Shown in pieces: positions 2,997 to 40,190 of a stretch of DNA of 64,000 nucleotides. The notes below the pieces were generated by a model. It searched no databases. It had not been told where the DNA came from and saw nothing but the letters and a program-made list of their open reading frames with translations. This DNA comes from Patescibacteria group bacterium. Its GTDB lineage: Bacteria > Patescibacteriota > Patescibacteriia > Buchananbacterales > UBA6539. The first letter of the stretch is position 1. The number at the start of each line of letters is the position of its first letter. The position numbers were made by a program, and so were the translations under genes. Location of the stretch: assembly GCA_034003985.1 (NCBI GenBank), contig JAVEXP010000002.1, positions 11,206 through 75,205 of the forward strand. Direction: 5' to 3'.

Positions 2997-3000
2997 TTTG

Positions 3001-3080
3001 TCATTCTGAGCGAAGCGAAGAATCTGCGAAGCGAAGAATCTGCGAAGCGAAGAATCTGCGAAGCGAAGAATCTGAACAAT
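3001..3080. repeat. tandem repeat, 16-bp unit GCGAAGCGAAGAATCT x about 4.5, preceded by TGTCATTCTGA
   Basis: Read directly. The core TGTCATTCTG(A/G)GCG.AGCGAAGAATCT recurs at 35236-35316, also next to a tRNA. Confidence 0.8.
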
Positions 3081-3124
3081 GGAATGAGAAAGATGGGCGG
3101 GGATGACAATAAATATTAATTAGT

Positions 3125-29972: not shown

Positions 29973-30025
29973 AGGGACCGCCAAGTCAAAGTATGCTCGT
30001 TGGTCCCGTTGGGGCGTCTGAAATT

Positions 30026-30268
30026 TTACCCGATGATTTGGTTGCTTACTTCCTGCCCGCAATGCAGGCAGAAGTAGCGCATGTCGCCACCATAGATTGA
30101 TTTCAGGGCAACGATTCTTACCCCTGGCTCAAGGCAGTGATGGCAGCTTTTATTGCCGCGCGGTAAGAGGCCGGCAACTTGGCGCTGCGTTTCCCGGATT
30201 ACCCGGGACACTGCGTCTGGTATGACCAGATCTGGGGGTGGCACTTCTAGTGCGGGTGGCATTTTCAT
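30026..30268 (-). CDS. small zinc-ribbon protein (CxxC...CxxC), unknown function
   Basis: GGAGGAG RBS before MKMPPALE... Two Cys pairs (CHHC, CLHC). Local GC is elevated. Confidence 0.4.
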   Translation of the reverse strand: MKMPPALEVPPPDLVIPDAVSRVIRETQRQVAGLLPRGNKSCHHCLEPGVRIVALKSIYGGDMRYFCLHCGQEVSNQIIG

Positions 30269-30329
30269 CTCCTCCTGGGGTATTGGACAGCGGTAAAATA
30301 ACATAAATTTATTAATTTGTAAAGACTTA

Positions 30330-37692: not shown

Positions 37693-39131
37693 AGAAATTT
37701 AAACCGGTAATTTTTACTTCCCTGATTTGCGCCGTCTTGTTTTCGTTGGTAACGATTTTGATTTCACATCTGGACTGGCCTTTTATTCCTTATTTGATTA
37801 TGGCGGGTTTGTTTATGGTCTGGGTGCAACCTGAAAAGGTCAGCTATAAATTTTTGGATAAACTGTTGGCTGGTTCTTTAATTTTTGGTTTTTTAATGAC
37901 TGCTTTAATTTTTCTGCGGATGTATTTGATGTCTCGTTTGGTTTATGCCTCGCCGCTTCCTTTTAATTTATTATGGGACAGCGATACTGTTGTTTTAGCT
38001 TTAGTCTATGCTTTCCTCAGTTTTTTGGGTGGGCTATTGGGTATATTTTTCAAAGGGCTTTACTTATTATATCAGACCAAGCTTGACTGGGTGATTGTTA
38101 TCCTTGGCTCGTTATTGACAACCCTGTCATCTTTGGCGGTTTTTAAAGTCAAGATTGGCGGGACGATCATGAGCGGTTATTATGGTCTGCCTTATTCTTA
38201 TTTTACCTATCAAATTAAAGATGTCCTTGATGGTTTTGCCATTGATAAGTTGATTTTTTCGCCGGGCAGTTTGTACCATTACATCGTCTTTGATTATTTA
38301 TTGTATCTGGCATTGTTTCTGGTGGTTTATTTTGGCGCTGTCCAAGTTAACAAAAGATTAACCAGTTGGAAAATAAACGCCACTTATTTGTTGTTTGGTC
38401 TATCTCTGTTTTTGATAACGGTTTTTATTTCTTTCCTGCCAATAAAACAATCATTTATTTCTTATCGGATTGCCATGGCCAGTTCTTGTCAGGTTGATCC
38501 TGATTGTGTGATTATTGCTAACCGTTTGCCATTCAGCTGCGCGATTGTGGTTAACCGGGACAATGCCGAAAGAATTTTAAAACTGGTTAATTCTTTTCCG
38601 TCAACCGGTGAATTGCAATGTTTGGGAAACGAAAAAGCTGTTTGCTTGGACCGCCGTTGTCAAGTGGCACTTGATTATAATTCCAATCAGGTAGGGGAGA
38701 ACAACGATTTATGGCGAATTTTTGTTGATGAGGTTCAAAAAATTAGTTTTAGCTACCCCAAAAAATTAACCGCTCAATATATTAGTACCGTTGATTGGCC
38801 ACCAGTTGTTACCCTTTCCGATAGTGTCCATCAATTAATTTGTGACGAAACTTCACCGGAAAGTAGTTTGCCACAAAGGGTTATGCGCCGGCAAGTTGAT
38901 GACCGAATTTATTGTGTTGAAGCTTTAAGCGAAGGTGCGGCCGGGTCGGTTTACACCCAGTATTCTTATTCAACCATTTGGGATGAAAAGCTTGCTACCA
39001 TTAGTTTTACGCTACAATTTCCGCAGTGCTATAATTATGATGAGCCAGCCCAAACCAATTGTAAAAAAGAACGCGAATCCTTTGATTTGGATGGAATAGT
39101 TGACCGAATTATCGCTAGCCTGAAAAATTGA
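37689..39131 (+). CDS. hypothetical membrane protein with N-terminal polytopic domain and C-terminal Cys-rich extracytoplasmic domain
   Basis: About 8 TM segments, then about 200 aa with about 12 cysteines. Confidence 0.5.
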   Translation: MKKFKPVIFTSLICAVLFSLVTILISHLDWPFIPYLIMAGLFMVWVQPEKVSYKFLDKLLAGSLIFGFLMTALIFLRMYLMSRLVYASPLPFNLLWDSDTVVLALVYAFLSFLGGLLGIFFKGLYLLYQTKLDWVIVILGSLLTTLSSLAVFKVKIGGTIMSGYYGLPYSYFTYQIKDVLDGFAIDKLIFSPGSLYHYIVFDYLLYLALFLVVYFGAVQVNKRLTSWKINATYLLFGLSLFLITVFISFLPIKQSFISYRIAMASSCQVDPDCVIIANRLPFSCAIVVNRDNAERILKLVNSFPSTGELQCLGNEKAVCLDRRCQVALDYNSNQVGENNDLWRIFVDEVQKISFSYPKKLTAQYISTVDWPPVVTLSDSVHQLICDETSPESSLPQRVMRRQVDDRIYCVEALSEGAAGSVYTQYSYSTIWDEKLATISFTLQFPQCYNYDEPAQTNCKKERESFDLDGIVDRIIASLKN

Positions 39132-39175
39132 TTTACCCTGGCTAATTTTACAATTTGTGATAAAATGGGTTTTAG

Positions 39176-39538
39176 ATGGCTAGCTGTCACTACCAAGATT
39201 ATCAAAAGCCGCATCCGGTTGTCCATAAATTCACGACCATTTCGGCCCTTTTATTTTTGGTAATTTTAGGAATGATTGCTTATTATTTTTTGGAAGATTG
39301 GCGCTGGGTTTAATTATTTTATTTTACAGTTTGTACTGTTGGCTATGGTGATCTTTGTCCGATTACTGATGGCGCGAGGATTTTTACCGCGGTTTTTATT
39401 TTGAGCGGTGTCAGTATTGCCCTGGCCGCTTTGGGAATTATTGGCTCAAGCTATACTGATAAGCGTGCCCGAAAAATTGTTCAGGATAATCCTTCGATTG
39501 TTAAAAAATCTACCGGCCGTAATTTAAAGATTGGTTAA
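39176..39538 (+). pseudogene. two-TM potassium channel (KcsA-like; TVGYGD filter) interrupted by an in-frame TAA at 39311-39313
   Basis: Hand translation gives TM1 MASCHYQ...FLEDWRWV, then a stop, then LFYFTVCTVGYGDLCPITDGARIFTAVFILSG... (pore helix, selectivity filter, TM2) in the same frame. Each piece is below the ORF-track cutoff. Confidence 0.55.
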
Positions 39539-39566
39539 TAATATTAAATATTAATTTTAATTAAAA

Positions 39567-40190
39567 ATGAAAAAGGCATTAACCGTTTTAGTTTTGACTA
39601 GTCTATTGGCTTTGACCGGTTGTACTCCCAACATTGCTTCAACTAGCAATTCCAATCCCAGTCAACCGCCTCAGGAAGAAGGGCAGCCCGATATGGCCAC
39701 CATTTGTAGTGGCTTATGTGGCCGAACCATTCAAGATTTGTGCCATGACGAAATTGAAGATATGAAAGCGGCCGGTCAAAGCTTGGATGACAGTATTATG
39801 GATGAAGTTACTTGTCAGCTAATGTGTGAAGCCGAATGGACCGATGACACCATTGAATGCGTCTCGGCCGCTGATGATTGTGGCCAGTTGTTGAATGCTT
39901 CGCCTTATTGTATGGAAACTGAGGTTAAAGATGGCGATCAAGAAGCTGCCAATCAGCCGTTGCCGGGCAGTTGTGATCGCGCTTGCCGCAATTATGCTAA
40001 ATGTGTCGGATATGGTGATGATATTACGCCTGCCGATCAAGAGGACGCTTATAATAGTTGTCTACAAGTTTGCGCGACTTGGACTGCTGCTCAGCGTAAT
40101 TGTGTGACCAATACCGTCATTAACGCTCCGGTTGATTGCGCTGCTCAAACCGCCTGTGTTTTGCCGGCTGTTGATGCCATGATGAGATAG
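39567..40190 (+). CDS. acidic cysteine-rich lipoprotein (about 20 Cys)
   Basis: Lipobox LALTGC, then a D/E-rich mature domain with many Cys pairs. Confidence 0.55.
   Translation: MKKALTVLVLTSLLALTGCTPNIASTSNSNPSQPPQEEGQPDMATICSGLCGRTIQDLCHDEIEDMKAAGQSLDDSIMDEVTCQLMCEAEWTDDTIECVSAADDCGQLLNASPYCMETEVKDGDQEAANQPLPGSCDRACRNYAKCVGYGDDITPADQEDAYNSCLQVCATWTAAQRNCVTNTVINAPVDCAAQTACVLPAVDAMMR

Follow-up and report, generated by a model that had tools for sequence, protein, structure and literature searches.

What has become of the potassium channel gene at positions 39176-39538 of the plus strand, in which a TAA codon stands inside an otherwise readable frame? The preliminary description of this DNA recognised a KcsA-like gene interrupted by a nonsense codon rather than by a frameshift, and offered three possible causes: a fresh pseudogene, a sequencing or assembly error, or readthrough of the stop codon. 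Analysis of the locus, of its intact relatives and of the window (the whole 64-kb stretch of DNA that was analysed) indicates that the locus is very probably a lineage-specific unitary pseudogene, derived from a family of small K+ channels whose distribution is patchy.

The interrupted reading frame and its protein family

Translation of the locus in one frame gives MASCHYQDYQKPHPVVHKFTTISALLFLVILGMIAYYFLEDWRWV, the internal stop, LFYFTVCTVGYGDLCPITDGARIFTAVFILSGVSIALAALGIIGSSYTDKRARKIVQDNPSIVKKSTGRNLKIG and the terminal stop, so that TM1, the pore helix, the filter sequence TVGYGD and TM2 are all encoded in a single frame (Table 1). On the 5' side of the internal TAA lies a 45-residue N-terminal part with the hydrophobic TM1; on the 3' side the frame runs on for 74 more codons, through LFYFTVCTVGYGD and another hydrophobic helix to a basic tail. 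Hydropathy analysis places TM1 at approximately residues 19-40 and TM2 at approximately residues 67-93. When the conceptual translation was searched against Pfam with X placed at the stop, one match to Ion_trans_2 (PF07885) was obtained; it scores 47.8 bits (cut-off 22.5; E 1.3e-12) and covers residues 25-93, on both sides of the stop, and thus both halves belong to one domain. With the intact orthologue as query, tblastn aligned residues 1-122 to the window in one frame at 75% identity (E 1e-57). A one-frame channel gene with an internal TAA is present, far beyond chance, and its frame is otherwise open: the preliminary description was correct both on the gene and on the preference for a nonsense codon over a frameshift. 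The window copy has the family's order of TM1, pore helix, filter and TM2 with the signature T-V-G-Y-G-D; it lacks an uninterrupted open reading frame for the whole Ion_trans_2 domain, and it lacks the conserved length of the pore helix and the conserved spacing to the filter.

Table 1. Features of the potassium channel locus, in window coordinates
Feature	Position	Strand	Basis
Whole probable pseudogene, remnant of a two-TM K+ channel gene of 120-123 aa	39176..39538	+	one-frame translation; Pfam match across the stop; 75% identity to P0001, residues 1-122
Start ATG of the channel pseudogene	39176-39178	+	
TM1 coding segment, residues ~14-40, with Thr33Met	39215..39295	+	hydropathy; helix 14-40 in the AlphaFold model of the orthologue; column counts
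In-frame TAA, first turn of the pore helix; C-to-T change of CAA	39311..39313	+	codon alignments; pore helix 44-57 in the P0001 model
TTA (Leu) in place of Ser/Ala; orthologue TCA	39314..39316	+	codon alignments; column counts
Junction of the 9-nt in-frame deletion, between 39334 and 39335	39332..39337	+	DNA alignments; three-way codon table; spacing counts
Selectivity-filter signature T-V-G-Y-G-D, sequence still intact	39335..39352	+	translation; alignment
Post-filter loop with Tyr/His61Cys and Thr63Ile	39356..39364	+	codon table; column counts
TM2 coding segment, almost unchanged	39374..39454	+	hydropathy; segment comparison; codon table
Original terminal TAA of the channel pseudogene	39536-39538	+	

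Separate translation of the 3' part was considered and rejected: the first in-frame start past the stop is a TTG at 39401, which lies inside TM2, and the nearest GAGGA is about 20 nt upstream of that TTG, too far away to serve as its ribosome-binding site.

Judged by architecture, profile match and modelled fold, the ancestral gene is a predicted member of the 2-TM K+ channel pore family. KcsA is the textbook 2-TM K+ channel, and as a description of the architecture the term KcsA-like is correct; among solved structures, the pores of MthK and NaK and the pore domains of K2P and TOK channels stand nearest. The pores of MthK and NaK (PDB 3rbz/1lnq and 3e83/3t1c) and KcsA have the same order of TM1, pore helix, TVGYGD and TM2 as the locus. 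Residues 25-105 of MthK align with P0001, the intact orthologue described below, over stretches of equal length (81 residues each; E 2.7e-12), and the AlphaFold model of P0001 matches the NaK and MthK pores with a Foldseek probability of 1.00 and a TM-score, normalised to the target, of approximately 0.75. What differs is that the mini-channel family has no RCK or other cytoplasmic gating domain, possessing only a short basic tail; unlike MthK, NaK and KcsA, the window copy is broken by TAA and lacks three residues of the pore helix, and is probably not a working member of the group.

Among solved structures, the best sequence matches to P0001 are pore domains of the K2P/TOK1 type (for example TASK-1, TASK-3 and TREK-1; PDB 9muh, 8k1j and 6cq6), with E values from 1e-14 to 2e-17. 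These matches explain the 'two pore domain' label applied by the annotation pipeline, as in the small Ion_trans_2 channel P0010, named by NCBI 'two pore domain potassium channel family protein [Parcubacteria group bacterium]'. K2P and TOK1 proteins contain two or more pore domains per chain, whereas the mini-channel family contains one. The viral Kcv channels of chloroviruses are of comparable minimal size (~80-125 aa) and likewise consist of a bare TM1-pore-TM2 unit without regulatory domains. Unlike them, the window copy resides in a cellular genome with a ribosomal protein operon.

Lesions absent from the syntenic orthologue

A homologue search over 5.8 billion proteins returned 18 small homologues (92-130 aa) with 43-76% identity to the conceptual translation of the window copy. 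The closest, P0001, is an intact protein of 123 aa (75% identity) encoded on a contig of 1247 nt (L001), which aligns with window positions 38776-40000 at 80% nucleotide identity over 1244 nt and has matching neighbours on both sides of the channel gene; this shared gene order makes P0001 the syntenic orthologue. The region upstream of the channel is 84% identical between the two. A second contig, from another sample (L020), bears a downstream gene that is 100% identical in nucleotide sequence to that of L001 and thus represents the same species as L001; the pore region of its channel gene is open, with CAA TCA and the 9 nt that the window copy has lost.

Two other differences were observed in the L020 channel gene (L020:1-390, compared with L001:430-815): a change of GTT to GGG that replaces Val by Gly in TM2, and a 1-nt deletion (CCAGAAAG to CCA-AAAG) that shifts the frame and leaves a shorter C-terminal tail. 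The tail may be dispensable, this copy may be decaying too, or the differences may be errors in a contig of low coverage.

In the 5' flank, the sequence TGTGATAAAAT at 39156-39166, 10 nt upstream of the channel ATG, resembles an extended -10 element and is kept as TATGATAAAAT in L001; a clear Shine-Dalgarno sequence was not visible upstream of the ATG. The pseudogene may still be transcribed.

The preliminary description had proposed comparing orthologues at the position of the stop, and the comparison returns a sense codon: where the window reads TAA TTA, codon alignments give CAA TCA (Gln-Ser) in L001, L020 and L002, so that two adjacent C-to-T transitions separate the two states. All 45 relatives have Gln, Ser, Glu, Val, Thr or Lys at the site of the stop and never a stop, and at position 47, where the window encodes Leu, 39 of the 45 have Ser and the other 6 have Ala. 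The second lesion is an in-frame deletion of 9 nt. The relatives read TGT ACC TTG AGC ACC GTT and the window TGT ACT GTT, such that ACCTTGAGC, present in L001, is missing; the deleted segment is flanked by two ACC repeats, and the deleted residues are Thr54-Leu55-Ser56, directly before the filter. In the AlphaFold model of P0001 (pLDDT 90.5; helices 14-40, 44-57 and 68-122), Gln46 and residues 54-56 all sit within the pore helix (44-57), which places the stop in the first turn of that helix and the deletion in its last.

The length that the window copy has lost is tightly conserved elsewhere. The interval from E40 to the filter aspartate (D62) is 23 residues in 44 of 45 small relatives and 24 in the remaining one, against 20 in the window, and the interval from the conserved Trp to the filter Thr is 14 residues in each of the CPR/DPANN loci L003-L011, against 11 in the window. 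The pattern W.W[IV]QSFYF..xTLxTVGYGD is kept in all 18 first-round homologues and also in L003-L011, the loci with a clear relationship to the family. A survey of the 150 best-matching representative proteins, out of 1.84 billion, covered 328 pore domains: this stretch is free of indels in 319 of them and one residue shorter in three, and a deletion of three residues occurs in none. A degenerate DNA search of 241 million metagenome records for the short-pore pattern FYFxVxTVGYGD produced one match, L019, which was rejected as a short-pore relative: it is an unrelated, GC-rich contig and carries a large open reading frame that does not belong to the channel family.

Accordingly, two phrases of the preliminary description need amendment. 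The TAA is indeed the only internal stop, but to speak of a single in-frame TAA understates the damage, which also comprises the 9-nt deletion and substitutions at nearly invariant sites. The TVGYGD filter is intact, but a pore helix three residues shorter than in all relatives examined is not canonical.

Constraint, mutation pattern and rival explanations

Changes were polarised with P0002 and P0003 as outgroups. The alignment contains 17 window-specific differences (13 substitutions, the stop and the three deleted residues) and two that are specific to P0001; in terms of amino-acid events, 14 fall on the window branch and two on that of the orthologue (binomial p 0.004). Four of the substitutions, T33M, S47L, T63I and I94T, affect columns conserved at 88-100%: Thr33 is Thr in 44 of 45 relatives; Thr63, in the post-filter loop that reads TGT CCG ATT in the window and TAT CCA ACC in the orthologue (39356-39364), is Thr in 42 of 45; and at position 94, where the window has Thr, every one of the 45 has Leu, Ile or Val. 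Among polarised changes in the DNA, nonsynonymous and synonymous ones number 15 and 9 on the window branch and 5 and 7 on the L001 branch, a contrast in the expected direction that is not significant (Fisher p 0.30); the difference in overall rate, 24 changes against 12, is marginal (p 0.065). Pairwise dN/dS is 0.21 for the channel, compared with 0.13 and 0.10 for the flanking genes. Because 0.21 is far from 1, most of the divergence arose under selection, before inactivation.

Decay is not spread evenly over the gene. Almost all of the lesions are within its 5' 190 nt, and the start codon and TVGYGD signature are intact. The TM2 block (39365-39490) differs from L001 at 12 nucleotides, of which about 11 are synonymous and one is nonsynonymous (Ile94Thr). 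This distribution is less even than simple neutral decay predicts, suggesting either very recent inactivation or some unexplained heterogeneity. The absence of any frameshift and the almost untouched TM2 indicate that the gene was inactivated fairly recently in comparison with its separation from the L001 lineage. The suggestion of a fresh pseudogene was thus well founded as to the pseudogene, and the two features just named fit its freshness, but about a dozen lineage-specific amino-acid changes sit less easily with that adjective.

The alternative that survives best, though it is unlikely, is that the TAA was introduced by an error in sequencing or assembly, or reflects a minor allele of the population, and that the real gene is open and encodes a working, divergent channel with a pore helix one turn shorter. 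One C/T difference suffices to create the stop, the frame is otherwise open, and TVGYGD, TM2, the start codon and the upstream region are conserved. Nor did look-ups yield an independent assembly of the window's species: exact look-ups matched neither the downstream protein nor the 45-aa N-terminal open reading frame, a scan of GTDB species representatives with P0001 found 16 loci, none of them from the window's species, and a scan of JGI metagenomes with the window's protein found no relative. However, a single-base error leaves unexplained the in-frame deletion, the substitutions at positions 33, 47 and 63, where, respectively, 44 of the 45 relatives have Thr, all 45 have Ser or Ala and 42 have Thr, and the excess of 14 amino-acid changes over two. 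A deletion of this kind occurs in none of the 328 pore domains from the best 150 representative proteins, and the shortened motif was met in the metagenome records only in the one unrelated GC-rich contig. The remainder of the 64-kb window is without broken genes, which speaks for a clean assembly.

The composition of the changes was considered as well. Over the 5' half of the gene (39176-39364), sites with T in the window and C in L001 number 14 and sites with the opposite arrangement one, whereas the same counts in the flanking genes are 32 and 26 (binomial p 0.002). It is improbable, and more so than an erroneous stop, that a one-step burst of strand-specific cytosine deamination, leaving the coding strand hypermutated by clustered C-to-T changes, inactivated the gene in place of gradual decay. 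The T/C imbalance fits such an event, as do the two adjacent C-to-T changes from CAA TCA to TAA TTA, but the window branch also contains A-to-G, A-to-C and G-to-A changes and a deletion, and no shared sequence context was visible around the C-to-T sites. The window lineage is AT-richer throughout (GC 41%, compared with 44% in L001) and GC skew is positive along the whole window; the C-to-T excess is therefore most simply ordinary leading-strand mutation bias, unmasked where selection lapsed. A deamination burst is in any case a variant of the pseudogene explanation and not an alternative to it, possible but not needed.

A bypass of the TAA by a suppressor tRNA, by low-level readthrough or by a dominant CAA allele would make the locus a working and structurally unprecedented K+ channel, its pore helix one turn shorter beside an intact TVGYGD filter and a conserved TM2. 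The one hint of continuing constraint is that the TM2 block has hardly changed, and we consider such a channel very improbable.

Termination in the window follows the standard code. Its 69 open reading frames end in TAA (47), TAG (16) or TGA (6), in agreement with the earlier judgement that a recoded genetic code is unlikely; an alternative code was tried and rejected on stop usage and on open reading frame statistics, since reading any stop as sense rescues no long genes meaningfully. The channel locus does not count as evidence for recoding. The internal stop stands in the context TAAT, the tetranucleotide that ends more of these frames (28 of the 69) than any other; U at position +4 lowers readthrough and strengthens termination in bacteria (PMC5289835). 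The window contains five tRNAs (Pro, Thr, Tyr, Thr and Trp), none of which is a suppressor tRNA or has the anticodon UUA, and none of the remaining 16 of its 17 intergenic gaps holds another readable frame interrupted by a stop.

The preliminary proposal of stop-codon readthrough is accordingly extremely improbable: programmed readthrough or suppression of the TAA, for example by a suppressor tRNA inserting the ancestral Gln, would suit a stop that stands exactly at the position of a Gln codon with 74 in-frame codons and a conserved TM2 beyond it, and such a tRNA could be encoded elsewhere in the genome, of which one window was covered, but the stop is not conserved (CAA in all three orthologous contigs), a change from CAA to TAA is a trivial one-step nonsense mutation, the codon and its context are those of the main terminator, no other gene in the window is interrupted, and the product would still be one turn of pore helix short.

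The pseudogene reading accounts for these observations as follows. The ancestor would have been a minimal (~120 aa) two-transmembrane K+ channel subunit consisting of TM1, pore helix, TVGYGD filter and TM2, and family membership leads one to expect that such subunits assembled as tetramers, like the pores of MthK, NaK and KcsA. The nonsense change of CAA to TAA in the first turn of the pore helix would end translation after 45 residues, leaving only TM1; the 9-nt deletion between two ACC triplets would have stripped the last turn of the helix; and Thr33Met, Ser47Leu, Thr63Ile and Ile94Thr would have altered nearly invariant residues. We infer that the product is non-functional and that the changes accumulated under relaxed selection with an AT-ward, C-to-T-rich mutation bias.

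Genomic setting, distribution of the family and significance

The window is densely coding, nearly all on the plus strand and in the standard code. It carries EF-Tu and a long run of small back-to-back open reading frames, consistent with a ribosomal-protein operon, and the best named relatives of its proteins are from Parcubacteria or Patescibacteria MAGs, which makes a CPR bacterium the probable source. The channel locus lies between an unannotated membrane protein of 480 aa upstream and, downstream, a Cys-rich lipoprotein-like gene of 207 aa that is followed by a patatin-like phospholipase.

Three side observations concern the surroundings. The 207-aa downstream protein (39567-40190) is rich in conserved cysteines and has a signal sequence of lipoprotein-like character. 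It matched nothing in Pfam or NCBIfam, and its database relatives number only seven (P0019-P0025), none named more precisely than Patescibacteria group bacterium; from its sequence it is probably a lineage-restricted secreted protein. The 357-nt gap at 29973-30329 lies between plus-strand genes, has no long open reading frame and appears comparatively GC-rich; it gave no Rfam match even at E 0.1, and its predicted RNA folding is slightly better than that of shuffled sequences (z -1.75). It may contain an unrecognised non-coding RNA or leader. Rfam scans, run on the window and also on two non-coding gaps, gave the five tRNAs and nothing else. Directly 3' of tRNA-Pro, at 2997-3124, the translated frames contain repeated peptide-like strings (SEESAKRRICEAKNLRSEES and similar), a pattern that points to short direct DNA repeats in a probably non-coding stretch.

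The channel gene does not accompany its neighbour through the wider group. Ranked by the downstream gene, the best relative is L020 at 83%, followed by L021 at 79%, a contig that begins inside this gene; the more distant homologues of the downstream gene on L022, L023 and L024 have no adjoining channel gene. P0002 occurs in another context, with an integrase on one side and an MFS transporter on the other. The channel gene is thus accessory and patchy in its distribution, and on account of this patchiness we infer that it was dispensable.

Relatives of similar length are Ion_trans_2 channels of 100-157 aa from Patescibacteria (CPR) and DPANN archaea. They resemble the window copy in length and in the motifs WxW(I/V)QSFYF..TLxTVGYGD..ALGIIG; unlike it, they are uninterrupted and have a pore helix of full length, the window copy being the sole degraded one found. 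The loci L003-L012 carry single-pore K+ channels of this family, from CPR/Patescibacteria and from DPANN (MAGs of Nanoarchaeota, Woesearchaeota and Micrarchaeota), with 42-60% identity to the bacterial orthologue. The sharing of mini-channels by CPR and DPANN suggests either exchange between two groups of small-celled symbionts or cross-contamination during binning.

Annotation of the locus should name one pseudogene, derived from a small Ion_trans_2 K+ channel, and not two short open reading frames; beyond that its importance is small, this being in all likelihood an ordinary decaying gene. It would represent a clean case of ongoing gene loss in a reduced Patescibacteria-like genome, in a lineage in which the mini-channel is probably dispensable. 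The intact relatives are of more interest: the compact K+ channels of approximately 100-160 aa in CPR bacteria and DPANN archaea could be minimal model channels.
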